This document shows positions 7,134 through 51,542 of a stretch of 64,000 nucleotides of DNA, one piece after another. The stretch is taken from the NCBI GenBank assembly GCA_035601775.1, contig DATNNO010000085.1:190826-254825 (forward strand), in the 5' to 3' direction. The translations under genes were made by a program, and so were the position numbers. Under the pieces are notes generated by a model. It saw nothing but the letters and a program-made list of their open reading frames with translations, searched no databases and was not told the DNA's origin. The stretch is from Terriglobales bacterium. GTDB lineage: Bacteria > Acidobacteriota > Terriglobia > Terriglobales > Acidobacteriaceae. The stretch's first letter is position 1. Every line of letters begins with the position of its first letter.

Positions 7134-8645
7134 TTGAGCGAAATGCCTCGGAGCAGAAAAGTCGTACTGTTTTATCCGCCCTATGACGGACCTCCGTTGG
7201 GGGCGCCGTTGTGTCTGCTGGCGCTGGCATCCCCGTTGCTCGAGGCTGGTTTCGAAGTCAAGCTGGTGGACAATCTGATGTCACCCGACTTCGAGAATGT
7301 GATTCTGCGCGAGACAGAGGACGCGCTCTGTCTGGGCATTTCAATCCTCACCGGCCCGATGATCGGTTCCGCGATCAGGATAGCGAAAAAAGTGAGGCAG
7401 AATCGCCCGGAGCTGCCCATTGTGTTTGGCGGCTGGCATCCCACGCTGGTTCCAGAACAAACGCTCAAGCCGGATTTCGTGGATGCCATCGTGCGAGGCC
7501 AAGGCGAGCTGACTTTGCTCGAACTGGCCCAGCGACTGGCGGAGGGTCAGGACTTGCACGGGGTGCGGGGCCTATCGTTCAAAGATGACGCAGGCATGCA
7601 TCATGAGCCGGAGAGACCAGTTGCAAACATCAACGACCTGCCAGCCCCCGCGTATCACCTGGCGAATGTCGATGTTTATGCCTCTACCACTGGCGTACGG
7701 CAGCTGGCCTATGCGAGCAGTGTTGGTTGCCCCTACGCATGCAATTACTGTACGGACATGGTCTTTTACAAGCGCCGCTTCAACGCGTATCGCGCCGACC
7801 GGGTAGTCAGCGATCTGGCTGAGCTGGTTCCGCGCTACGGCATTGAAGAAGTCGCGCTTCTGGATTCCAATTTTCTGGTTGACATCAAACGCGCGGTCGC
7901 AATTGCCCGCGGGATCATCGCGAGCGGCGTCAAGTTCAAGTGGGATTTTCAAGCTTCAACTGACTTCGTGGCGAGGATGAGCGAAGACGATGTTCGGTTG
8001 CTGGGTGAGAGTGGCGTGAACCACATGGGATTTGGCACGGAATCGGCTTCCAAAGATGTGCTCGCTTTGATGAACAAGAAACACGAGCGCATAGAAGACA
8101 TGGTAGACACGGCCCGCAAGGCGGAGCTCGCGGGCATTCACGTTACTTTTAATGTCATTCTCGGATACCCGGGCGAAACCGAGGCGGATCGCCAACAAAC
8201 GTTCCGCATCATGAGCGAGATCGCCAAGCAATACTGGAATGTCAGCTTTTCTCCCAACATTTTCACTCCCTACCCCGGGATTCCAATATGGCCGCAACTG
8301 AAGGAGATGGGACTGCAGGAACCGCAGTCACTGGAGGAATGGGAGAATCTGGCCTTAGGATTTAATGTGCTTCCATGGTTGCAGGGGGAAGAACTGCGCC
8401 GGCTGCGACGCAGCCTCGAGTACTTCCTGCTAAACAACCAGATCCGCAAGGCGACAAAGAAGAGTGCTTGGTTGCGGCAGGGTTTTCGCCGGGCTCTCGG
8501 TGCGCCTGTACGCTGGCGCATCAACAAGAACCGCTACTCATTCCCTTGGGAACTCTGGGTTTCGCGTGCGGTAGAGCGGGTCACGACGCGGCGATCGCTC
8601 CTCACAGGCCAAAAACTAAGTGACCGAATGCAGGAAGTTTGCTGA
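7134..8645 (+). CDS. B12-binding-domain radical SAM protein (class B rSAM), subfamily 1
   Basis: CPYACNYC motif. N-terminal KVVLFYPPYDG ... GISILTGP ... VFGGWHP. C-terminal NIFTPYPG ... LPWL ... YSFPWELW. TTG at 7134 or ATG at 7143. Confidence 0.85.
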   Translation: MSEMPRSRKVVLFYPPYDGPPLGAPLCLLALASPLLEAGFEVKLVDNLMSPDFENVILRETEDALCLGISILTGPMIGSAIRIAKKVRQNRPELPIVFGGWHPTLVPEQTLKPDFVDAIVRGQGELTLLELAQRLAEGQDLHGVRGLSFKDDAGMHHEPERPVANINDLPAPAYHLANVDVYASTTGVRQLAYASSVGCPYACNYCTDMVFYKRRFNAYRADRVVSDLAELVPRYGIEEVALLDSNFLVDIKRAVAIARGIIASGVKFKWDFQASTDFVARMSEDDVRLLGESGVNHMGFGTESASKDVLALMNKKHERIEDMVDTARKAELAGIHVTFNVILGYPGETEADRQQTFRIMSEIAKQYWNVSFSPNIFTPYPGIPIWPQLKEMGLQEPQSLEEWENLALGFNVLPWLQGEELRRLRRSLEYFLLNNQIRKATKKSAWLRQGFRRALGAPVRWRINKNRYSFPWELWVSRAVERVTTRRSLLTGQKLSDRMQEVC

Positions 8646-8706
8646 TGTCGTGAGTTCGACCAAGCAGGCACAGTCCCAGGGTGCCTAACCCAGTCTTTTC
8701 CGTGTT

Positions 8707-10221
8707 TTAATTGTCCAACCTAGTCAGTGCTTCCCACGGCTTGATGCCAGCAGGTCCATTTGGCGCCAGGAGCGCCCAGCCTAACCCGGCGGAGTACAAT
8801 AACCCACCGCATGCAACCTGGAGGATCAGCGAGCCATAATGGTGGGCTGGAAACTCTTGTCTCATGAGCAAGAGTACGCCGGCGAGCGGCACACAGAGAC
8901 TCAAGGGCAGCATGTAAGCCTGGCTGAGAAAGGTGCTCAAAGGGATGTCCAGCTCGCGACGGACGTGCCTTGGAAGAAAAAACACGCAGGTAAACGTTAA
9001 TGGAATTGCCGTGCCGAGTGCGACACCGACAATTCCGAAATGAGATAGCAACCAGATGCTCAAAATCAAGTTGATTGCACCTTCGAGCAATAACACTGCG
9101 GCTAGCGTTCGGTGCCTGCCGATGCCGAGCAGGATTCTCGTTGAAGTCGACTGCGCCAGGTAGATGGTTTTGGGCACGGCCAAGATCACCAAAACAAAAT
9201 AGCTGGAAAGATACTTGGTGCCCACCCAAACTTCAATGATCGACCTGCCCAGGATCACCAGAATCGCGCAGAGAGGAAAGATTATGAGTGCACACGCGCG
9301 GTTTCCCGCCACAAGAGTCCGCCGCAGACGCACCACATCTCCAGTAGCATGCAGGTGGCTGGACATAGGAGTAAATATTACCGCCATGCTTCGGACAGCG
9401 GAACTTGAGTATTCGACCAGCTTTGATCCGATCGAGAAATAAGTGACTGCACTCGAAGAAAGCAGCGCTCCGATAAGGATCGGGTCCGATTGGAAGCGGA
9501 GTTTCTCCGCCAGAAGAATCACAAAAGCAAACGCACTATAGCTCAACATCTGCCAAAAGGAGTGACAATCGACATACCTCGGGCTTAACCTTAGAGGGCA
9601 AGCTCGGAAGGCCATCCCCATGAAAATCAGATAGCCGAAGAGGTTCATCCCGACCGTGATGGCCCCAATCGCCACCAACCCGCCCCCCTGGCTCAGCGCA
9701 ATCACGATCAGTAGGCCGCGGAGCAGCGTAACTCCGACCTGGCTAAGATGTAGCCAGGAGAACTTCTGCAACCCCTCGAGAACTGCGGCAAATACGCTTA
9801 GCGGAAAGGACAATGCCACACCGGCGCCCGCCAGCGCAAACAGTACCCGCGCCGATCCGAGAAAGCTAGGTGGTATTTTGAAAAGCGATTGCAGGTGAAA
9901 GAACCCCATTCCAGTAAGTAGCAACACAACCAACGACGCAATGGCATAGAAGGCGACGCTCGTGCTGAGAAAGCAGCTGAGTTTGTCTGCGTTCTGGGTT
10001 GCCGCAAACTTGGCAACATATCGCACGATGGAAGATCGGATCCCAAGATCGAGGAGTCCGTAATATCCGGTCAGGGAGAAGACCAGCACCCACAGGCTAA
10101 ATGCATCATCGCCCAGCCTATGGAGGATGAAGGGAGAAAGAAAGAAACCAACCACCGCGTGGACCAAAAGGCCCAGCCATGTGGCACTAACATTCTTCGC
10201 GGCTTGTTCCCTCAGACTCAT
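8707..10221 (-). CDS. MOP-superfamily oligo/polysaccharide flippase (Wzx-like)
   Basis: 504 aa with ~12-14 TM helices. N-terminal KNVSATWLGLLVHAVVGFFLSPFILHRLG is typical of polysaccharide biosynthesis (PST/MOP) flippases. Confidence 0.7.
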   Translation of the reverse strand: MSLREQAAKNVSATWLGLLVHAVVGFFLSPFILHRLGDDAFSLWVLVFSLTGYYGLLDLGIRSSIVRYVAKFAATQNADKLSCFLSTSVAFYAIASLVVLLLTGMGFFHLQSLFKIPPSFLGSARVLFALAGAGVALSFPLSVFAAVLEGLQKFSWLHLSQVGVTLLRGLLIVIALSQGGGLVAIGAITVGMNLFGYLIFMGMAFRACPLRLSPRYVDCHSFWQMLSYSAFAFVILLAEKLRFQSDPILIGALLSSSAVTYFSIGSKLVEYSSSAVRSMAVIFTPMSSHLHATGDVVRLRRTLVAGNRACALIIFPLCAILVILGRSIIEVWVGTKYLSSYFVLVILAVPKTIYLAQSTSTRILLGIGRHRTLAAVLLLEGAINLILSIWLLSHFGIVGVALGTAIPLTFTCVFFLPRHVRRELDIPLSTFLSQAYMLPLSLCVPLAGVLLLMRQEFPAHHYGSLILQVACGGLLYSAGLGWALLAPNGPAGIKPWEALTRLDN

Positions 10222-32510: not shown

Positions 32511-33101
32511 TTATGCTTCTACTTTGCGCAGGTGGAATTTGCGGGTTGCAGTGCGGCCGGAGTAGTTGGCTTGCACGAGCACGGCAGAATCGGGGAGAGA
32601 GGCTTCATCAACATCGATCTTCAGCTCGGCGTCGCCGTCTGAACCGGTGACCACTTGGGTGTAGAACGGGGCAGCGTCGGGACGGGCAAAGCGAACCGTC
32701 AGCCGCGCTCCCTCCACTGCGGCGCCTCCCTCGGTGACGCGCAGGCGCAGGGTCAGATTACGGTCCGAATGCACGGAGCCAGCGTTGAGCCACAGCACAT
32801 CGAGTTCCTTGATAGCAGCCAGCGACTCGGGCGTGAAGCGTTTGTCGAGAACACCGTCCACCTGTCCGTCGCGGATAGAGTCGAGCACCAGACGATGCTG
32901 GTCGCGCAGGATCTGCTCTTTCTGCTGGTCGGTGAAGCCGGACTCGGCGGCTTTGTCCGCGTAGGAGGTGGCACGCTTGCCGATGCAGCGTCCGCGGACG
33001 AAGACTTGAGTCTGCAGGAGCAACTCGTTCTCCCGCGCTTCGCTTTGCACGTGGTAAACCGTGCCGTCGTGCTTCACGTCGGTATTGAAGCCAAAGATCA
33101 T
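32511..33101 (-). CDS. Hypothetical protein (196 aa)
   Basis: Clean ORF with an ATG start: MIFGFNTDVKHDGTVYHVQSEARENELLLQTQVFVRGRCIG... No family recognised. Confidence 0.6.
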   Translation of the reverse strand: MIFGFNTDVKHDGTVYHVQSEARENELLLQTQVFVRGRCIGKRATSYADKAAESGFTDQQKEQILRDQHRLVLDSIRDGQVDGVLDKRFTPESLAAIKELDVLWLNAGSVHSDRNLTLRLRVTEGGAAVEGARLTVRFARPDAAPFYTQVVTGSDGDAELKIDVDEASLPDSAVLVQANYSGRTATRKFHLRKVEA

Positions 33102-33106
33102 CTGAC

Positions 33107-33147
33107 CCTACTTAACCAATCCTACTTAACCAATCCTACTTAACCAT
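33107..33147. repeat. 14-bp tandem repeat x3 (CCTACTTAACCAAT)
   Basis: Units at 33107-33120 and 33121-33134, with a partial unit at 33135-33147. It begins 5 nt upstream of the minus-strand start codon at 33101. Confidence 0.8.
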
Positions 33148-33199: not shown

Positions 33200-33228
33200 T
33201 TGACACTCCCATCCGCGAAATCTACTCT
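33200..33228 (+). promoter_or_regulatory. Sigma-70-type promoter candidate for the nuo operon
   Basis: TTGACA (33200-33205), 17-nt spacer, TACTCT (33223-33228). It lies ~45 nt upstream of the nuoA ATG. Confidence 0.45.
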
Positions 33229-33274
33229 AGAATGTTTAGTGAATGCTTGGCTGCGAATTATATATAGCTCCTCT

Positions 33275-33670
33275 ATGCCGGACAATTACTTCGCTCGCTA
33301 CCTGCCATTATTGATTCACCTCATCGTAGCAGGTGCTTTGGCTTCTGCCATTGTGCTGCTTTCCTGGTTTATTGGCTACCGGCGGCCTACGCGAGCCAAG
33401 CTTTCTCCTTATGAGTGCGGGATGACCCCGGTGGGAGACGCCCGGGAGCGCTTCTCGGTAAAGTTCTACCTGGTGGCCATGCTCTTCATTCTGTTCGACG
33501 TGGAAGCGATCTTCCTTTATCCCTGGGCGGTGATCCTGCGGGAGCTTAAGATGTTTGGTTTCTGGGAGATGCTGGTGTATATCGGCATCGTTCTGGTGGG
33601 CTACTTCTATATCTGGAAAAAGGGTGTGCTGGACTGGGGTACTCCGTCGGCAAGAAGAGGGGAGGTCTGA
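33275..33670 (+). CDS. nuoA: NADH-quinone oxidoreductase subunit A
   Basis: 131 aa from ATG 33275. KLSPYECGMTPVGDARERFSVKFYLVAMLFILFDVEAIFLYPWA. Confidence 0.9.
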   Translation: MPDNYFARYLPLLIHLIVAGALASAIVLLSWFIGYRRPTRAKLSPYECGMTPVGDARERFSVKFYLVAMLFILFDVEAIFLYPWAVILRELKMFGFWEMLVYIGIVLVGYFYIWKKGVLDWGTPSARRGEV

Positions 33671-34167
33671 TGCCGCTGACCCCTGCCATTACCGATCTTG
33701 AAGCGCTGAAGGAGCACCCTGCGGTGGCTAGATTGCGGTCGTGGAACTCGGCGGCGGTCGAGGGAGCGAAGTTTGACCGCGAGGAGATGACGATCCACAT
33801 CGAACGCTCTTGCATCCGCGAGGCTTGCGTCATTCTGCGGGACGATCCGACCTATCCTTTTAATTATCTTTCCGATGTGACTTGCGTGGATTGGTATCCC
33901 TCGCAGCCGCGCTTCGAGGTGGTTTACCAGTTGCTGTCGATCCCCAAGAAGGAACGAGTGCGGCTGAAGGTGCGTTTGGGGGCCGATAGCCCGGTGGTGG
34001 AATCGGTGACTTCGGTTTGGCCGGCGGCGAATTACTTCGAGCGAGAGGTTTTCGATTTGTTTGGCATCCGGTTTACCGGGCATCCTTATTTGCGGCGTAT
34101 TCAGATGCCGGAAGATTGGGAAGGGCATCCGCTGCGGAAAGACTATCCAGTGGAGGGCTATCGCTAG
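33670..34167 (+). CDS. nuoC: NADH-quinone oxidoreductase subunit C
   Basis: Its ATG overlaps the nuoA stop (TGATG at 33668-33672). WPAANYFEREVFDLFGIRFTGHPYLRRIQMPEDWEGHPLRKDYP. Confidence 0.92.
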   Translation: MPLTPAITDLEALKEHPAVARLRSWNSAAVEGAKFDREEMTIHIERSCIREACVILRDDPTYPFNYLSDVTCVDWYPSQPRFEVVYQLLSIPKKERVRLKVRLGADSPVVESVTSVWPAANYFEREVFDLFGIRFTGHPYLRRIQMPEDWEGHPLRKDYPVEGYR

Positions 34168-34175
34168 ACTTCGTT

Positions 34176-35381
34176 ATGGCGCACATGACATCCACGCCCG
34201 CGCTCGAACCCGGCCAGGATCGGACGATGATCCTGAACATGGGTCCGCAGCATCCGTCCACGCACGGGGTGTTGCGGCTGATTCTGGAAATCGATGGCGA
34301 AACCGTGGTGCGGCTTATGCCCGATATTGGGTATCTGCACACCGGGATCGAGAAGACTTGCGAAGCCAAGTTCTACCAGCAAGTGGTGCCGCTTACCGAC
34401 CGCATCGACTACCTCTGCCCGATGACCAACAATCTTTGTTATGCGTTGGCGGTCGAGAAACTGCTGGGGCTGGAGATCCCTCCTAAGGCGCAATGGCTGC
34501 GCGTGATGCTGAACGAATTGACGCGCATCAACTCGCACCTGGTGTGGCTGGGGACTCATGCCATGGATATTGGCGCGCTTACCGTTTTTCTTTACTGCTT
34601 CCGCGAGCGTGAGGATATTTTGCGTTTGTTCGAGGCGGTCAGCGGCCAGCGCATGATGACTTCTTATTTCCGCATCGGCGGCGTGGCACTGGAACCGCCG
34701 ATGGGATTCTTTGACCGTGTGCGGGACTTCGCCAACCGCTTCCCTGCCAAGGTGGATGAGTACGAAAACCTGCTGACGGGGAATCCTATCTGGGTGATGC
34801 GGACGAAAGGCGTGGCGCGGATTACGGCGGAAGATGCTATCGCACTGGGCGCAAGCGGACCTACGCTGCGTGGAAGTGGCGTCGACTTCGATCTGCGCCG
34901 GGACATGCCTTACTCCGGTTACGAGAACTTCAAGTTCAAAGTCCCGGTGGCACTGGAAGGCGACGTGTTCGCGCGATACATTTGCCGGGTTCAGGAGCTG
35001 CGTGAATCAATTGCCATTGTGCAGCAGGCTCTCGACGGAATGCCGGAGGGTCCGATCAAGGCGGATGCGCCGAAAGTGGTGTTGCCCGATCGGGAAAAGA
35101 TGAAGACGCAGATGGAAGCTCTCATCTATCACTTCAAGATCATCACCGAGGGCTTTGCGGTACCGGCGGGCGAGGTTTACCAGGCGGTGGAGTCGCCGCG
35201 CGGCGAAATGGGGTATTACATCGTCAGCGACGGAACGGCTAAACCGTATCGCGTGCATATGCGGGCGGCGTGCCTGGCGAATCTGCAGTTGCTGCCGAAG
35301 ATGTGCGAAGGGCGGTTGCTGGCGGATGTGGTGGCGGCGATTGGATCGATCGACATCGTGCTGGGAGAAATCGACCGGTAG
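34176..35381 (+). CDS. nuoD: NADH-quinone oxidoreductase subunit D
   Basis: ATG at 34176 follows the nuoC stop. MILNMGPQHPSTHGVLRL ... ESPRGEMGYYIVSDG ... DIVLGEIDR*. Confidence 0.93.
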   Translation: MAHMTSTPALEPGQDRTMILNMGPQHPSTHGVLRLILEIDGETVVRLMPDIGYLHTGIEKTCEAKFYQQVVPLTDRIDYLCPMTNNLCYALAVEKLLGLEIPPKAQWLRVMLNELTRINSHLVWLGTHAMDIGALTVFLYCFREREDILRLFEAVSGQRMMTSYFRIGGVALEPPMGFFDRVRDFANRFPAKVDEYENLLTGNPIWVMRTKGVARITAEDAIALGASGPTLRGSGVDFDLRRDMPYSGYENFKFKVPVALEGDVFARYICRVQELRESIAIVQQALDGMPEGPIKADAPKVVLPDREKMKTQMEALIYHFKIITEGFAVPAGEVYQAVESPRGEMGYYIVSDGTAKPYRVHMRAACLANLQLLPKMCEGRLLADVVAAIGSIDIVLGEIDR

Positions 35382-35383
35382 AA

Positions 35384-35423
35384 ATTGAGTAATTTGGGAA
35401 TTGGGTAATCGGGTAATTGAATC
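35384..35423. repeat. Array of ~5 degenerate octamers (ATTGGGTA type, i.e. GGTAATT repeats)
   Basis: ATTGAGTA ATTTGGGA ATTGGGTA ATCGGGTA ATTGAATC, starting 3 nt after the nuoD stop. Confidence 0.8.
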
Positions 35424-35484
35424 CTGAGGTTTGCAGTGAGTTCTCCGCCCCGAGCAACTCCGGGACCGGACCAAGGCGTTTGCA

Positions 35485-35796
35485 TTGCGTGTGATTCGGC
35501 TTTTTCGATCGCTTCCGTCTAAGCCTGATGCTCAGGTCTTGGGGAAGCAGCTGCTGCGGTGTGGAACATCGGTGGCCGCAAATTATCGGTCTGTTTGCCG
35601 CTCCCGATCAAAGGCAGAGTTTATCGCTAGAATCGGAATCGTTGTGGAGGAGGCGGACGAAGCTGTCCTGTGGCTGGAATTGTTGGCAGAATCTGGCATT
35701 GTGTCGCGGGAGAAAACGAAGGAACTGCTAGTGGAAGCTCGGGAGCTGACTGCGATCTTTACGGCATCGCAAAAAACGGCTCGGAGCAATACCTAG
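35485..35796 (+). CDS. Four-helix-bundle protein (23S rRNA intervening-sequence protein family, PF05635-like) inserted between nuoD and nuoE
   Basis: LRVIRLFRSLPSKPDAQVLGKQLLRCGTSVAANYRSVCRSRSKAEFIARIGIVVEEADEAVLWLELL is typical of this family. Family-like sequence (EQLRDRTKAFA) continues upstream of the TTG at 35485 to a stop at 35437 with no canonical start. The 5-prime end may therefore be truncated or non-canonical. Confidence 0.7.
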   Translation: MRVIRLFRSLPSKPDAQVLGKQLLRCGTSVAANYRSVCRSRSKAEFIARIGIVVEEADEAVLWLELLAESGIVSREKTKELLVEARELTAIFTASQKTARSNT

Positions 35797-35809
35797 CGTT
35801 AAATTTCAC

Positions 35810-35841
35810 AATTACCAGATTACTCAATTACTCAATGGCAA
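35810..35841. repeat. Inverted-orientation octamer array (AATTACTC type)
   Basis: AATTACCA GATTACTC AATTACTC AATGGCAA, ending 1 nt before the nuoE ATG. It is the reverse complement of the 35384-35423 array units. Confidence 0.8.
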
Positions 35842-35842
35842 C

Positions 35843-36328
35843 ATGAAGTTTTCTGATCAATTCGAATCGCGCTTTTCGGAGATGCTGACGCATTATCCGA
35901 CGAAGCGGTCTGTGCTGGTGCCGACGCTGCTTTATGCGCAGGATGAGGTCGGGTATCTGAACCATCACGTCATTCATGAGATTGCGCAGCGGTTGGATTT
36001 GACGGACCTCGAGGTGAGCAACGTGATCAGCTACTACTCCATGCTGACGACCAAACCTCGGGGCAAATTCAATGTGCAGGTTTGCACCAACATTGCGTGC
36101 ATGCTGCGCGGGGGCGAAGAGATTCTCGATCACTGTGAGAAGAAGTTGGGCATCGGGCACAAAGGGACCACGCCGGACGGTATGTTCTCGCTCGAGGAAG
36201 TGGAGTGCATCGGGGCTTGCAGCTGGGCTCCGGCGGTGCAAGTAAATTATGACTTCCATGAGAACTTGACCGTGGAGAAGATGGACAAGGTCCTGGACGA
36301 GTATAAGAAGAATCGAGCAATTGGGTAA
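35843..36328 (+). CDS. nuoE: NADH-quinone oxidoreductase subunit E (2Fe-2S)
   Basis: VQVCTNIACMLRGGEEI ... EVECIGACSWAPAVQVN (four Cys of the 2Fe-2S site). Confidence 0.92.
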   Translation: MKFSDQFESRFSEMLTHYPTKRSVLVPTLLYAQDEVGYLNHHVIHEIAQRLDLTDLEVSNVISYYSMLTTKPRGKFNVQVCTNIACMLRGGEEILDHCEKKLGIGHKGTTPDGMFSLEEVECIGACSWAPAVQVNYDFHENLTVEKMDKVLDEYKKNRAIG

Positions 36329-36386
36329 TTTTGCAATTGCCGGAAGAATTACCCGATTACTCAATTACTCAATTACTCAATTACAA
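36311..36386. repeat. Cargo-less inverted octamer element at the nuoE-nuoF junction
   Basis: AATCGAGCAATTGGGTAATT (36311-36330, including the nuoE stop) is 17/20 complementary to AATTACCCGATTACTCAATT (36347-36366). The array continues AATTACTC AATTACTC AATTACAA up to the nuoF ATG. A central GCAATTGC palindrome is present. Confidence 0.75.
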
Positions 36387-36387
36387 A

Positions 36388-37713
36388 ATGATTTTGGTTT
36401 CCCATCCCGACGAAGTAAAAGTCGTCTCCAAACGCTTCGGGAAAGGTGCGACCGATATTGATCGCTACTTGGAGCTCGACGGCTACAAAGCTGTCCAGAA
36501 AGCGCTGGGGATGCAGCCGGATGCGATTGTCAACCTGGTGAAGGATTCCGGCCTGCGCGGGCGCGGCGGGGCTGGATTCAACACCGGGATGAAATGGTCA
36601 TTCGTTCCCAAGCAGTCCTCGAAACCAAAATACATTTTGTGCAACGGCGATGAGAGCGAACCGGGCACTTGCAAAGACCGCCTGATTTTCGAGCACGACC
36701 CGCATGCGGTGATCGAAGGAGTCGTGATCGCCGGAATTGCCACGGGCTCGCATGCCGGATACATCTATGTTCGCGGCGAGTACCGATATCTTTTGGAGAT
36801 CATGCAGAAGGCGATCAAAGACGCCTATGCGCGGGGATTCCTGGGCAAGAACATTTTCGACAGTGGCTACGACTTCGACGTGTATTGGCATGGCGGCGCT
36901 GGGGCTTATGAAGTAGGCGAAGAGTCGGCGCTGATGGAATCGCTCGAGGGCAAGCGCGGGATTCCACGAATCCGGCCTCCCTTCCCGGCCGTAGTCGGGC
37001 TATGGGGCGGGCCAACTGTCATTAATAACGCGGAGACGCTCGCCAGCGTGCCGCATATCATCCTAGGCGGCGCGGAATGGTTTGCCAAGCTGGGGCCGCC
37101 CAAGAATGGCGGGACCCGCCTGTTCTGCCTGAGCGGGCATTTGAATCGTCCTGGGGTGTATGAGCTCCCGATGGGCTACAACCTGAAGAAGATGATCTAC
37201 GAGGTCGGCGGCGGTATTCCCAATGGGCGCGCGTTGAAAGCCGTAGTTCCGGGCGGTTCGAGCTGTCCGATTTTGACTTCTGCTGAAATCGATGTCTCCA
37301 TGGATTTTGATTCGATGGTGAAAGCGGGCTCGATGCTTGGCTCAGGAGGCTTGGTGGTCGTTGATGACACCACCTGCATGGTCAAGTTTGCCTTGCGGAT
37401 CATGAAGTTTTATCAGCACGAGAGTTGCGGGTGGTGCATCCCCTGCCGCGAAGGTACGGATTGGCTAAAGAAAACGCTTGCTCGATTTCACGCTGGTGGC
37501 GGGGTGAAGAAGGATATCGATAATATCCAATACCTCTCGGAAAACATGTTGGGACGCACGTTCTGTCCGCTGGGCGACGCGGCGGCGATGCCGACGATTT
37601 CCATCGTGAAGAAATTCCGCAAGGAGTTTGAAGAGCATTTGGAAGGCAGGCCTTGTCCGTTTGAAAAGGCTGGTGTGGTCGAGCAGTTACCGGTGATGGC
37701 GGGAACCGATTGA
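36388..37713 (+). CDS. nuoF: NADH-quinone oxidoreductase subunit F (FMN, 4Fe-4S)
   Basis: ATG at 36388. GLRGRGGAGFNTGMKW ... CNGDESEPGTCKDR ... ESCGWCIPCREGT. Confidence 0.93.
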   Translation: MILVSHPDEVKVVSKRFGKGATDIDRYLELDGYKAVQKALGMQPDAIVNLVKDSGLRGRGGAGFNTGMKWSFVPKQSSKPKYILCNGDESEPGTCKDRLIFEHDPHAVIEGVVIAGIATGSHAGYIYVRGEYRYLLEIMQKAIKDAYARGFLGKNIFDSGYDFDVYWHGGAGAYEVGEESALMESLEGKRGIPRIRPPFPAVVGLWGGPTVINNAETLASVPHIILGGAEWFAKLGPPKNGGTRLFCLSGHLNRPGVYELPMGYNLKKMIYEVGGGIPNGRALKAVVPGGSSCPILTSAEIDVSMDFDSMVKAGSMLGSGGLVVVDDTTCMVKFALRIMKFYQHESCGWCIPCREGTDWLKKTLARFHAGGGVKKDIDNIQYLSENMLGRTFCPLGDAAAMPTISIVKKFRKEFEEHLEGRPCPFEKAGVVEQLPVMAGTD

Positions 37714-37723
37714 GGAGCGAATT

Positions 37724-37804
37724 GCGTAATTTGGTAATTGTGTAATTTCGTAATTTAAAGGCAAGGTTCTTCAATAGCCCGATCACCCGATTACTCAATT
37801 ACGA
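37724..37804. repeat. Cargo-less inverted octamer element at the nuoF-nuoG junction
   Basis: Forward units GCGTAATT TGGTAATT GTGTAATT TCGTAATT (37724-37755), a 25-nt spacer, then reverse units GATCACCC GATTACTC AATTACGA (37781-37804). It ends 9 nt before the nuoG ATG. Confidence 0.75.
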
Positions 37805-37813
37805 AATGTTCTT

Positions 37814-40171
37814 ATGGCTGACGTAAACATTACGGTGGATGGCAAGAAGGTCACGGCTCCATCTGGGACGCTGCTGATTGAGGCCTGCAAGAGCGTGGGC
37901 ATCGAGGTGCCCTCATTCTGTTACTACCCAAATCTGTCGCTGCAGGGCGCTTGCCGCATGTGCCTGGTCAAAGTGGAGAAGATGCCCAAGCTGCAAACTG
38001 CGTGTACCACGGTGATCAGCGAAGGCATGGCGGTCACGACGGAGAGTGACGAGATTCGGCAGGCGCGGAAGAGCATGGTGGAATTGCTGCTGGGCAATCA
38101 TCCACTCGACTGTCCGGTGTGCGATGCGGGCGGCGAATGCGAACTGCAGGATATGACGTTCTCCTACGGTGCAGCCGAATCCAAGTACATCGACGCCAAG
38201 AATCACAAGGAAGAGCAGCAGTGGTCGCCGGTGGTCTTCTTTGACCGGCCGCGCTGCATCTTGTGCTACCGCTGCGTGCGGGTGTGTGGCGAAGGCATGG
38301 ATGTTTGGGCTCTGGGTGTGCAGAACCGCGGGGTGAGTTCGATCATTGCGCCGAATCAGGACGATCATCTGGAGTGCGAAGAATGTGGCATGTGCATCGA
38401 TATATGCCCGGTGGGCGCGCTGACTTCCGGCGCGTACCGCTACAAGACGCGTCCCTGGGAGATGAAACACGTGGGCACGACTTGCACTCACTGCGCCGAC
38501 GGCTGCAAGACCACGTTGGGCGTGCGCCGATCCGATACCGGCATGGAGATTGTACGCGGAGACAACCGCGACAAGAGCGGCATCAATGGTGATTTCCTTT
38601 GCATCAAGGGGCGCTATGCTTTCGATTTCGCGCATCACGAAGACCGGCTGACGCAGCCGTTGATCCGCAAGAACGGCCGGCTGACTCCATCAACATGGGA
38701 AGAGGCGTTTGAGCTGGTCGGAAAACGATTCGCCGAGATTCGCGAGAAAGACGGCGGACAGGCGGTAGGTGTTGTCGGCTCGAACCGCACCACCAACGAA
38801 GAAAATTATCTGCTGCAGAAGTTTGCTCGCGTGGTGCTGCAGACCAATAATATCGACCATCACCGCACTGCCGACTTCCCTGCTCTGGCCGCGGCTCTCG
38901 CAGGCAAACCAGAAGCAACGGCCAGCATGCGGGACGTATTCAATGCGCCGGCGACTCTGCTGATCGGCAACGATCCGACTGAGCAGCATCCGTTGCTGGC
39001 ATGGCAGATTCGGAACAATGTTCGGCTGCACCGGGCGCGGCTGTCTGTGATCAATTCGCAACCCATTAAGTTGCGACGGCAAGCGGCCAGCTTCGTCCAG
39101 ATCCCTGCGGGATCGGAAGGAAAAGTGGCTGCGTTTCTAGCGGGCGATGACGCGGCCGTCGACGCAATTGCCAGCGAAGCGACCAGCAGCGATGCCTGGA
39201 TCGCGTTGCGTGACAAACTCCGTGGCGAACCGAGCCTCGTCATTATTTTTGGATCGGAGATCCGGGGCAAGGACATCGCTTCGGTGGTGAAGTTCGGCTC
39301 CGGTATTGCGGGCGCCAAACTTGTCTGCCTGGGCGACTACGCCAACTCGCGCGGCGCCGCTGATATGGGGCTCTACCCTGACCTGCTTCCGGGCTATCAG
39401 CGGGTTTCGGAGACGGTTCACGAAGAGTGGGGCAGCGTGCCGCAAGCGCACGGCCTGACCTTGCCTGAGATGGTCGAAAGCGCGAAAGCTGGCAAGCTGA
39501 AGGCGTTTTATGTAGTGGGTGCGAACCCCGTCGAGCAGTTCGGCATAGATCCATTCGTCTTCGCAAATAGTTTCGTGGTGGTGCAGGACATGTTCCTGAC
39601 CGAAACGGCCGCGATTGCGGATGTGGTCTTACCTGCCGCCAATGCGTACGAGAAATCTGGAACGTTCACTAACACGTGCGGCGACTTGCAACTGGTGAAA
39701 AAGGCTGGCGAGGTCACCGGTACGAAGTCAGATTTCGAAATGATCGTCCGTATTGCCGGCGCGATGGGCTTTGACGTTCAGCGATTGGTGCCGTTTAGCC
39801 GGGGAACCGGCACGGACATGGGACAATCGCGCGGTGCGCAGTCCGGTGAAGCGGACCGGCACGGGGTATGGCTCGAGGCCCATGGACTCGAACCGAAAAT
39901 GAGCCCGTTCGATCCCATGGCGATTCTGGATGAGATCCAGCGGTTGGTGCCTGGGTACGACGTTTCCCGTATGAATATCCTGACCGGCAACGATCAGCAC
40001 ACGACTTTGTCCGGAAGCGGGCCTGGGGCATTGCACAATCCGGAGTTGATCGTACCCGCCAAGGATAATCTTTTTAGTTCGGGCACATTGGGCCGTTATT
40101 CCCGCACCTTGAATTCGGTAATTGAGAACCGTCACAAACAGCCAGCGGAGGCGGAAGTCGCCGCCGACTAG
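37814..40171 (+). CDS. nuoG: NADH-quinone oxidoreductase subunit G (long, molybdopterin-fold form)
   Basis: N-terminal 2Fe-2S/4Fe-4S motifs (CYYPNLSLQGACRMC, HPLDCPVCDAGGECELQ, CILCYRCVRVC, CEECGMCIDICPVGA) followed by an MopB-like domain. Confidence 0.92.
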   Translation: MADVNITVDGKKVTAPSGTLLIEACKSVGIEVPSFCYYPNLSLQGACRMCLVKVEKMPKLQTACTTVISEGMAVTTESDEIRQARKSMVELLLGNHPLDCPVCDAGGECELQDMTFSYGAAESKYIDAKNHKEEQQWSPVVFFDRPRCILCYRCVRVCGEGMDVWALGVQNRGVSSIIAPNQDDHLECEECGMCIDICPVGALTSGAYRYKTRPWEMKHVGTTCTHCADGCKTTLGVRRSDTGMEIVRGDNRDKSGINGDFLCIKGRYAFDFAHHEDRLTQPLIRKNGRLTPSTWEEAFELVGKRFAEIREKDGGQAVGVVGSNRTTNEENYLLQKFARVVLQTNNIDHHRTADFPALAAALAGKPEATASMRDVFNAPATLLIGNDPTEQHPLLAWQIRNNVRLHRARLSVINSQPIKLRRQAASFVQIPAGSEGKVAAFLAGDDAAVDAIASEATSSDAWIALRDKLRGEPSLVIIFGSEIRGKDIASVVKFGSGIAGAKLVCLGDYANSRGAADMGLYPDLLPGYQRVSETVHEEWGSVPQAHGLTLPEMVESAKAGKLKAFYVVGANPVEQFGIDPFVFANSFVVVQDMFLTETAAIADVVLPAANAYEKSGTFTNTCGDLQLVKKAGEVTGTKSDFEMIVRIAGAMGFDVQRLVPFSRGTGTDMGQSRGAQSGEADRHGVWLEAHGLEPKMSPFDPMAILDEIQRLVPGYDVSRMNILTGNDQHTTLSGSGPGALHNPELIVPAKDNLFSSGTLGRYSRTLNSVIENRHKQPAEAEVAAD

Positions 40172-51064: not shown

Positions 51065-51542
51065 ACTCTGCTGCTTCCCAGTCCGCTCCAGGTGAATCCA
51101 ACGATATGTCAGGATCGAAAGTAGCTTTCGAAGATGATCTCTGCTTGACGGTTGTATCAGCGGTGGCAAAGAGCGCAGAGCACATGGGAGCGAACCTGCT
51201 CCCATGCAATGCGGCAGCCCGGTTGCAAGCCCGGGCCCAACAAAAAACATGTCTCCCCTGGCACAACTCGATCGCCTGCTGGAAAGCATCGTTCAGGAGC
51301 TGACTTTGCGTATTGTCGTTCCACGGTTGAGCGAGTTTGACTCGGTTTGGGACACTGCGAACAGTATCTGCGACCGCTACCAGATCAAGAGCGTCTCCAG
51401 TTGGCGATAGCTCCCTCGGTTACAGTCGAGAGGCAGGGGGACGGGAAACGATTTGGAAGGGCGGGACGTGATGCAAACTGGGATGGACGCCGCTCGTTGC
51501 GCCGCGGAATAACCTGAGCGCAATACCAAGACCCAACTTTCG

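Follow-up and report, generated by a model that had tools for sequence, protein, structure and literature searches.

How an essential and tightly coupled operon can house an additional gene, and what such a gene does there, is the question raised by a 64,000-nucleotide stretch of DNA from an uncultured soil acidobacterium of the Terriglobales (contig DATNNO010000085.1; the whole stretch is referred to here as the window). Its complex I (nuo) operon carries, between nuoD and nuoE, a small gene for a four-helix bundle (4HB) protein of the PF05635/TIGR02436 family, known since the 1990s only as the 'open reading frame (ORF) in 23S rRNA intervening sequences', and this gene is bracketed by inverted arrays of tandem octamers. 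The cassette fits exactly into the junction of the two cistrons and has their orientation: the 5' arm sets in 1-2 nt past the nuoD stop codon (TAG at 35379-35381) and the nuoE ATG lies 4 nt past the end of the 3' arm. The reading we prefer, held at an about even balance of belief and doubt and largely by analogy with ribosomal intervening sequences (IVSs), is that the arms form a stem which would act at the RNA level and make the insertion harmless to the operon, most probably through cleavage by RNase III.

The sequence of the cassette was reread at 35384-35841, and the coordinates and letters given by a first-pass annotation of the window were reproduced exactly. Five forward octamers occupy 35384-35423 (ATTGAGTA ATTTGGGA ATTGGGTA ATCGGGTA ATTGAATC) and four reverse octamers 35810-35841 (AATTACCA GATTACTC AATTACTC AATGGCAA); Tandem Repeats Finder and a second repeat finder recover both arrays as well as a 28-30-nt inverted repeat that is 82-83% complementary. 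The string AATTACYC occurs 10 times in the window, 1.7 being expected (a roughly six-fold excess), and period-8 ATT arrays are found, within the 64 kb, only at three consecutive nuo junctions. The arm-arm duplex comprises 28 bp with a free energy of -32.1 kcal/mol, compared with -13.5 +/- 3.1 kcal/mol for shuffled sequences, none of which (0/500) is as good. Folded singly, each arm is unstructured, and in the minimum-free-energy fold of the whole 475-nt stretch the two are paired, giving an element of ~460 nt with a looped-out insert of ~380 nt. The annotation had reported a 103-residue PF05635-like ORF between nuoD and nuoE, inverted octamer arrays around it and the ability of these arms to pair as a long stem. 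All three are corroborated, the first by the family matches of the ORF and of its two neighbours (PF00346 and PF01257), the second by rereading and repeat finding, and the third by duplex energy, global fold and the covariation described below.

The same design is widespread among relatives. For this comparison 79 genome loci and several metagenome loci were selected for carrying a 4HB gene (labelled L001 and so on), and Nuo proteins were mapped onto them; since the loci were chosen for gene presence, junction frequencies are biased. All the closest loci are metagenome-assembled genomes of Acidobacteriota. The great majority of the related 4HB genes belong to the nuo operon, with most of them at the nuoD/nuoE (D/E) junction, many at nuoF/nuoG (F/G) and a few at nuoE/nuoF (E/F) or after nuoG; several operons hold two or three copies, and some copies lie upstream of nuoA beside a divergent gene. 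Outside this operon, copies are found between co-directional housekeeping genes, i.e. nrdR and an isocitrate/isopropylmalate dehydrogenase-like gene, lolC/E and lolD, pdxS and pdxT, and nuoD and nuoH of a second complex I operon, these neighbours being named from recognisable sequence motifs and not by family search. Cassettes are always co-oriented with the flanking genes.

Concerning the arms of these copies, inverted tandem arrays flank, as judged by eye, ~90 of the 92 Acidobacteriota genes, typically with four to five units, and the period is 8 nt in 79 of the 92 5' arms and 76 of the 92 3' arms. Units of 7 or 9 nt occur in a few protein clades, the period being clade-specific. Unit sequences differ from clade to clade (AATTGAGT, GATCGGGT, CATTGAGT, AGTTGGTA, AATTGCGG and others) and the two arms of one cassette match each other: among the 92 copies, the two arms of the same cassette form a duplex of -57.6 kcal/mol on average, versus -44.8 kcal/mol for arms taken from different cassettes and -34.6 kcal/mol for shuffles. 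Expanded arms of ~13 units (L072, 2000-2110) and ~9 units (L084, 3345-3452) are exceptions to the usual number. The median spacing is 4 nt from the stop codon to the first unit and 6 nt from the last unit to the ATG. Some genomes have empty sites at the orthologous junctions, where nuoD and nuoE overlap (ATGA), nuoE and nuoF are 6 nt apart and nuoF and nuoG 10-11 nt apart; with such a short ancestral spacer, any insert necessarily abuts both the stop and the start codon.

Evidence for pairing of the arms comes from an alignment of 28 cassettes, in which the five units per side align without a single indel. Hence, both the unit number and the unit-specific variants are conserved, which is unusual for tandem repeats. 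RNAalifold applied to these cassettes yields 27 pairs, 13 of them with compensatory changes; one, for example, is A-U in 15 sequences and G-C in 11. In the pair count, 92.3% of the cells hold a pair; on each of five measures the real alignment exceeds all 500 shuffles, and when the partners are displaced by 1-3 columns pairing falls to 21-42%. Mismatches also carry a strand signal, with 130 being G-U in the sense RNA versus 69 that are G-U only in the antisense (A-C type in the sense). Furthermore, it is the G-rich ATTG strand that forms the 5' arm of the cassettes, as it does for 35 of 36 hairpins that lack the ORF, according to a strict count that was used since motif-based classifiers of ORF-less hairpins undercount and loose motifs mis-assign polarity. 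The G-U bias and the constant polarity lean towards selection on the sense-strand RNA.

The gene inside the stem is well defined as to family. The window ORF matches PF05635 with an E-value of 2.6e-15 (57 bits, cutoff 33.8), TIGR02436 with 73-82 bits (cutoff 24) and PDB entry 2RLD (5 chains) with an E-value of 1.5e-16; Pfam and NCBIfam searches with the window 4HB sequence gave nothing beyond PF05635 and TIGR02436, thus no HUH/Y1 transposase. The 103-aa ORF extends from a TTG at 35485 to 35796, while its frame is open back to an in-frame TGA at 35437. In fact the reading frame is intact from 35440 to the TAG at 35794-35796, with the TTG as the sole in-frame start, and ~16 N-terminal residues are missing. 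Intact homologues, 80-96% identical and 119 aa long, begin with M/V-x-T-Q-PEQLRDRTK, and the window protein is 96% identical to one of them (P0001). When aligned as DNA, the ATG or GTG starts of three relatives (L005, L009, L010) fall onto a GTG at 35436 of the window, directly after which the window has one extra base that is absent from all three. The insertion is probably real, because the sequence bearing it is identical in four independent metagenome assemblies. A start codon is present at the expected place in 88 of 92 related copies, the window copy being among the 4 without. The eroded 5' end that the annotation had suspected is therefore real, and its cause is the 1-nt insertion: as the alignments suggest, the window gene was probably frameshifted recently after the ancestral GTG, and it is probably either a recent pseudogene or the source of an N-terminally truncated product.

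In relatives, purifying selection on the 4HB protein is strong (median dN/dS ~0.05). It is also basic, with a median isoelectric point (pI) of 9.6. A neighbour-joining tree shows large position-specific D/E and F/G clades, with some exceptions, and 4HB identity tracks NuoD identity (Spearman 0.61 for D/E and 0.47 for F/G), for which reasons inheritance is taken to be mostly vertical. Members of several independent 4HB clades are present at nuo junctions, the copies that precede nuoA fall within a D/E clade, and the 4HB proteins of L019 (D/E) and L016 (F/G) are 88% identical, their NuoD proteins being 90% identical. The tree and the identities indicate that the cassette is old, mostly vertical at nuoD/nuoE and occasionally relocated to other nuo junctions. 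Recent duplication within the operon was considered and ruled out, as D/E and F/G copies of one genome are only 61-70% identical and hence old paralogues. The colonisation of the mRNA that the annotation had inferred is not a recent event: the insertion is ancient. The empty sites it had asked after do exist, with occupancy varying between junctions and genomes, and its question whether such arrays flank other PF05635 genes is answered in the affirmative for nearly all copies of the relatives; the arrays are, however, not specific to cassettes (see below).

Features of the window cassette and of the two following junctions (HMM, hidden Markov model; SD, Shine-Dalgarno)
Feature	Position in the window	Strand	Basis
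nuoD (complex I 49-kDa subunit), upstream host cistron	34227..35381	+	Pfam PF00346, E 7e-119
5' arm, five tandem octamers of AATTGNGT type	35383..35423	+	repeat finders, pairing with 3' arm
SD-like GAGG (35426-35429) followed by probable ancestral GTG start (35436-35438)	35426..35438	+	alignment with L005, L009, L010
4HB coding region (PF05635 / TIGR02436)	35440..35796	+	HMM searches, PDB match
Probable 1-nt insertion site, C-rich run ending CCCC (35448-35451)	35443..35451	+	single gap column in three relatives
3' arm, ~4.5 tandem octamers of CAATTACN type, reverse complement of 5' arm	35803..35838	+	
nuoE (complex I 24-kDa subunit), downstream host cistron	35843..36328	+	Pfam PF01257, E 6e-52
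ORF-less hairpin of the same repeat family, nuoE/nuoF junction	36311..36387	+	repeat finders, fold
ORF-less hairpin of the same repeat family, nuoF/nuoG junction	37720..37806	+	repeat finders, fold

The two junctions that follow in the window hold hairpins of the same repeat family without an ORF. At nuoE/nuoF the last nuoE codons lie within the 5' arm (36311-36342), which also provides the TAA stop, and the 3' arm (36347-36387, 5 units) reaches the nuoF ATG at 36388; the loop consists of a few unpaired bases, extra 3' units are left unpaired, and the fold has -21.1 kcal/mol (z = -4.4). The last five nuoE codons together with the stop (AATCGAGCAATTGGGTAA, 36311-36330) are composed of octamer units, and the C terminus of NuoE appears to have been replaced or extended by the repeat element. 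At nuoF/nuoG, a junction that is occupied by a 4HB cassette in relatives, a 5' arm (37720-37760), a loop of ~20 nt and a 3' arm (37780-37806) precede the nuoG ATG at 37814, with a fold of -22.9 kcal/mol (z = -1.6). The loops of ORF-less hairpins retain the inner ends of cassettes (AATTGAAAAyC...GGTTTTCAATT), for which reason these hairpins look like cassette derivatives from which the ORF was deleted; alternatively, the cassettes could be hairpins that gained an ORF in the loop.

Other relatives vary the theme at the same places. Solo CAAT-type 3' arms, lacking a 5' partner, lie directly upstream of the start codon at the E/F junctions of L024 and L048 and at F/G of L083, which suggests that the C/A-rich arm can alone serve as the leader of the downstream gene. 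In L030 the D/E junction (378 nt) has array units and then ~eight tandem copies of the 16-nt GGAGTGGCTGTGCGCT in place of the 4HB gene. A different small insert of ~560-615 nt is present at nuoF/nuoG of L053, L062, L071, L078 and L009 (8316-8885 in the latter, where the gene is called as DinB_2/MST family), and other hairpin families take the same places at F/G of L018, L040, L044 and L045 and at E/F of L018 and L031. These families include a GC-rich palindrome of ~110-130 nt (TAGCGCCGGCGTCTCGCCGGC...GCCGGCGGGACGCCGGCGCTA) and an AG-rich hairpin (GTCAGAAGTTAGAAGTGAGAATGCAGAAGTAA...). Such variety would make the distal nuo junctions hot spots of gene insertion in general.

The design is not restricted to Acidobacteriota. 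With the 2RLD sequence as query, Bacteroidaceae relatives were found that are ~31% identical to the window protein; their Bacteroides cassettes lie between araD and araA and between an aminotransferase and a DAHP-synthase/chorismate-mutase gene, co-directional with the neighbours, and in all three contexts the flanks are inverted heptamers, (AATTGAC)x4-5 and (GTCAATT)x4-5. On viral contigs of IMG/VR, inverted heptamer arrays that vary in sequence flank 9 of 11 related genes. In addition, a published gene table of Flavobacterium columnare places a 4HB gene between gmk and nadD with gaps of ~35 nt (PMC5524665). The same design is thus recognised in at least two phyla: a 4HB gene at an operon junction between inverted arrays of about five 7-9-nt units, often with an ATTG/CAAT core, a core that is common to phyla whose 4HB proteins share only ~31% identity.

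In order to sample the arrays without regard to the gene, metagenome contigs were searched for exact occurrences of the 18-mer ATTACTCAATTACTCAAT, which gave 120 loci, 104 of them evaluable. These 104 arrays comprise 47 gene-less hairpins, 56 that are solo or purely tandem and a single 4HB cassette, and just 3 of the 120 loci lie near nuo genes. With 103 of 104 arrays devoid of a 4HB gene, the arms are part of a wider class of tandem repeats that form hairpins in intergenic DNA. The cassette design itself was not found described in the searchable literature on PF05635, TIGR02436, the IVS protein or the repeat strings.

The surroundings of the cassette were also screened. A simple consensus scan of the + strand over 35250-36450 showed neither a sigma-70-type promoter nor an intrinsic terminator, and reading of the sequence found no SD motif between the 3' arm and the nuoE ATG, nor, in the window, one adjoining the nuoE, nuoF or nuoG starts. 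Rfam at gathering threshold detected no rRNA in the window and no known RNA family over the cassette, the sole match being a type-P5 twister ribozyme (RF02684) at 51174-51234 (+), with 51.6 bits against a cutoff of 37.6, which is unrelated to the cassette. PADLOC models of anti-phage defence gave no matches. Inspection of the window junction revealed no target-site duplication; compared with miniature inverted-repeat transposable elements and insertion sequences, the inverted arms are present and a transposase was not identified. Likewise, beside the cassettes of the relatives no transposase, reverse transcriptase or nuclease was identified and no template/variable repeat pair was recognised, the neighbours being nuo or other housekeeping genes a few nt away.

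As to the operon as a whole, its order is nuoA-C-D-(4HB)-E-F-G-H-J-K-L-M-N (33200-40171 in the window; 1-20486 in L001), nuoB and nuoI not being called between their expected neighbours. The nuoD gene call recurs in the identical contig L001 at 8385-9539 (offset 25842). Upstream, the divergent spacer between a 196-aa gene (32511-33101, - strand) and nuoA holds at 33107-33146 the 14-nt unit CCTACTTAACCAAT in 2.9 copies of perfect identity, a few nt upstream of the start of the 196-aa gene. The same spacer in L009, L023 and L066 is occupied by a 4HB cassette whose 3' arm abuts the ATG of that gene.

How could the stem make such an insertion harmless? According to the reading we prefer, the arms of the polycistronic nuo transcript would zip into a stem of ~30 bp that loops out the insert and brings the nuoD stop beside the nuoE start. 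RNase III would then cleave the stem, as in ORF-bearing 23S rRNA IVSs, releasing a stem-capped 4HB mRNA; nuoE would keep a CA/AU-rich leader that is short, poor in G and unstructured, and its translation would proceed from there without an SD sequence. The annotation had likewise proposed an RNase III site, one that could separate nuoA-D from nuoE-N, and such a cut is plausible. The basic 4HB protein, pentameric in solved relatives, would probably bind the repeat arrays, which is the least supported step of the scheme. Cleavage appears the most likely fate of the stem because IVSs with the same protein family, size and stem length are cut mid-stem, and because long near-perfect double-stranded RNA is generally a substrate of RNase III. 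Metatranscriptome searches with the window and with the Stordalen-type MAG locus L021 gave nothing beyond Logan contigs of relatives that are 85-95% alike. Among these were 'joints' that skip 35377-35843, but as a sign of RNA processing they were rejected, since they derive from relatives without the cassette.

Several points weigh against this scheme. Formation of the stem in vivo, its cleavage by RNase III and the mode of nuoE translation are all inferred. With only 1 of 104 sampled arrays holding a 4HB gene, the role of the stem may have nothing to do with that gene, and since the window copy is frameshifted, whatever depends on the protein has here probably been lost or is provided in trans. 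The compared sequences are phylogenetically related, which makes significance appear too high in the shuffle statistics; inverted repeats can also come to covary at the DNA level, through template switching or conversion between arms, and the excess of G-U over A-C mismatches is only ~2:1. Partnerless solo 3' arms upstream of start codons show that pairing is not always needed. Finally, the ATTG/CAAT core is conserved and the number of units is fixed, which speaks for recognition of the sequence itself, something that a pure RNase III stem would not need.

As the main rival reading at the RNA level, a stem left uncleaved could serve translation instead, by restoring the ancestral tight junction either through coupling, with the ribosome at the nuoD stop melting the base of the stem and thereby freeing the nuoE start, or by the closed stem bringing a purine-rich SD-like tract, located just 5' of it, to the AUG; the long-range translational coupling of MS2 coat and replicase and the hairpin-bridged ribosome-binding sites of phage T4 are precedents. 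Such bridging would fit the overlapping (ATGA) or 6-11-nt spacing of uninterrupted nuo junctions, the closeness of the arms to both codons (medians of 4 nt from the stop and 6 nt to the start) and the lack of an SD motif beside the nuoE, nuoF and nuoG starts, and this is also what has been suggested for the STRR hairpins in the hupS-hupL spacer of cyanobacteria (PMC2670836). Of 108 junction elements, 35 (32%) do have an SD-like tetramer in the interval from the stop codon to the first unit, versus 8.8% of control windows, but this is only about a third of the elements, and a split SD as a universal feature was therefore rejected. Moreover, solo 3' arms and the unpaired 3' units at the window E/F junction imply that the start region is often single-stranded anyway, and a ~30-bp duplex is expected to be cut by RNase III; we hold bridging to be unlikely, though well short of negligible. 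That the 4HB protein regulates its host operon, binding the repeats in mRNA in the manner of TRAP or in DNA and thereby tuning the expression or stoichiometry of distal complex I, seems to us still less probable. Its long retention at nuo junctions under strong purifying selection, the several independent 4HB clades found there and the nature of periodic arrays as typical multi-site binding targets (an oligonucleotide of the TP228 parFGH study shares the 8-bp unit AATTACTC; PMC5389482) speak for a regulator. Nevertheless, cassettes in unrelated operons (nrdR|icd-like, lolC/E|lolD, pdxS|pdxT, araD|araA and aromatic amino acid genes) show that it would not be specific to complex I, and the window operon shows no visible decay although its copy is frameshifted.

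Alternatively, the system may be an element of the DNA level, with the hairpins being dispersed repeats of the REPIN/RAYT kind and the embedded 4HB protein a repeat-binding factor that maintains or spreads them, five units matching a pentameric ring. To our knowledge the 4HB fold has no catalytic activity, which counts against such an element, as do the failure to identify a transposase, reverse transcriptase or nuclease beside the cassettes and the lack of an evident target-site duplication. Mobility must also be very low, given that copies of the same operon are old paralogues (61-70% identity); the excess of gene-less arrays is seen across metagenomes and in the window operon, so that co-occurrence of gene-less hairpins with a cognate 4HB gene in one genome is presumed, and the window genome tolerates a frameshifted copy. 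On the other side, nearly all 4HB genes are inside inverted arrays (~90/92 in Acidobacteriota, all three Bacteroides contexts, 9/11 viral), the arrays are mostly gene-less (1/104 with 4HB, 47 gene-less hairpins), ORF-less loops keep the inner ends of cassettes, and cassettes have relocated between junctions. The ATTG/CAAT core is kept across phyla at ~31% protein identity, neither arm changes its unit number in 28 cassettes, a repeat period of 7, 8 or 9 nt is specific to protein clades, and the 4HB protein, basic with its pI of 9.6, is a member of the Avd superfamily (PMC10053308) and has pentameric solved relatives (PMC4990558). All in all, we regard this possibility as tentative and rather doubtful. 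Very improbable, and already disfavoured by the data, is that the arms are neutral, slippage-made microsatellites around a passenger gene, with stem and gene both functionless: tandem repeats do arise easily by replication slippage, metagenomes hold many solo arrays and the window ORF is broken, but the arms covary, 28 diverged cassettes agree in unit number and in their unit-specific variants, polarity is constant, the design recurs across phyla and dN/dS is 0.05.

The conserved core, the presence of about five units at any unit length, the clade-specific period and a basic protein with pentameric relatives argue that something reads the repeats sequence-specifically, and the 4HB protein, judging by these features, is the obvious candidate. 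One may go further and propose that TIGR02436 proteins and short-tandem-repeat hairpins form one two-part system across phyla, in which a pentameric ring would read the ~five units of each arm, in its own cassette as well as in the many ORF-less hairpins of like flavour in the genome, acting either on RNA, to control processing and translation at the junctions, or on DNA, to propagate the repeats; this we put forward as speculative, with the balance of expectation clearly against it.

Comparison with known systems places the cassette between several of them. The IVS of Coxiella has 428 nt, a 28-bp stem cut mid-stem by RNase III and an S23p ORF in the loop, and ORF-bearing IVSs show a sporadic distribution suggesting past mobility (PMC4990558). 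Like the 23S rRNA IVSs of Leptospira and Coxiella burnetii, the nuo cassette has a PF05635/S23p gene in the loop, a terminal inverted-repeat stem of ~28-30 bp and a similar size; it is likewise part of the host RNA, with no promoter of its own detected, and sporadically distributed. Unlike them, its host is a protein-coding operon junction and not helix 9, 25 or 45, its arms consist of ~five tandem 7-9-nt units with an ATTG/CAAT core, and ORF-less versions are found at neighbouring junctions; excision by RNase III, demonstrated for IVSs, would apply to the nuo cassette by analogy only. The interpretation of the first-pass annotation is thus supported in part: its label of IVS-type cassette is apt for the architecture, i.e. 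a 4HB ORF in the loop of a ~30-bp stem within ~460 nt, but an IVS strictly speaking would have to lie in an rRNA gene, which this element does not.

As regards the arrays, no described class comes closer than the STRR of cyanobacteria, whose 7-bp units make hairpins in the hupS-hupL spacer and for which transcript stability or translational coupling has been proposed (PMC2670836). Both are short tandem repeats forming hairpins in spacers within operons, and the ORF-less hairpins at nuoE/nuoF and nuoF/nuoG of the window are of this kind, whereas the phylum (Acidobacteriota) and the unit sequences differ from those of STRR1-3. No link between STRR and a 4HB gene was found in the searchable literature, and 33 viral-contig loci holding (TTGGTCA)3 (STRR2) contain no 4HB-like ORF, in a collection that is a poor proxy for cyanobacterial genomes.

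Concerning partnerships of a gene with a repeat, RAYT is an HUH/Y1 transposase with known chemistry. In RAYT/REP, a single conserved, vertically inherited gene is flanked by inverted hairpin repeats that are far commoner without the gene, in intergenic DNA (PMC3116915). The present case resembles REP/REPIN-RAYT in that nearly all 4HB genes are in arrays and most arrays are gene-less, and differs in that the 4HB protein, a helical bundle of 119 aa, has no known catalytic site and the repeats are tandem arrays, not a single palindrome. Avd of diversity-generating retroelements, which is pentameric and binds nucleic acid, is of the same structural superfamily and is likewise a basic four-helix bundle, but no reverse transcriptase or template/variable repeat pair is recognised next to the cassettes, which occupy tight housekeeping junctions. 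Homology between Avd (PDB 4DWL) and a PF05635 member (PDB 2GSC) has been reported (PMC10053308).

Finally, there are oligomeric proteins that read evenly spaced short repeats, such as the TRAP-type rings and, on the parH arrays of plasmid TP228, ParG; neither TRAP nor TP228 ParG has homology to the 4HB protein. The TP228 parFGH study used a DNA-binding 20-mer, AATTACTCAATTACTCAATT, built from the unit AATTACTC (PMC5389482). This 20-mer is contained in the nuoE/nuoF arm of the window (36362-36384) and the nuoD/nuoE arm matches it over 17 nt (35819-35836), a sequence match that is most likely a coincidence; it is a reminder that arrays with 8-bp periodicity can be protein-binding sites.

The significance of the locus lies in joining two problems. 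PF05635/TIGR02436 is one of the large uncharacterised bacterial protein families, with at least 8000 scored candidates in each of two protein searches, and short-tandem-repeat hairpins within operons, such as STRR, are a puzzle of about equal age; covarying arms, junction placement and ORF-less hairpins tie both together. The design also shows that a gene can reside for a long time inside an essential, tightly coupled complex I operon without breaking it. A tractable organism is at hand in Bacteroides, whose protein has a solved structure (2RLD) and whose relatives' cassettes lie in the arabinose operon. If the two-part system proposed above were true, it would be a RAYT/REPIN-like partnership built on a non-enzymatic ring that binds nucleic acid, and it would explain both the ORFs of 23S rRNA IVSs and STRR-like repeats.

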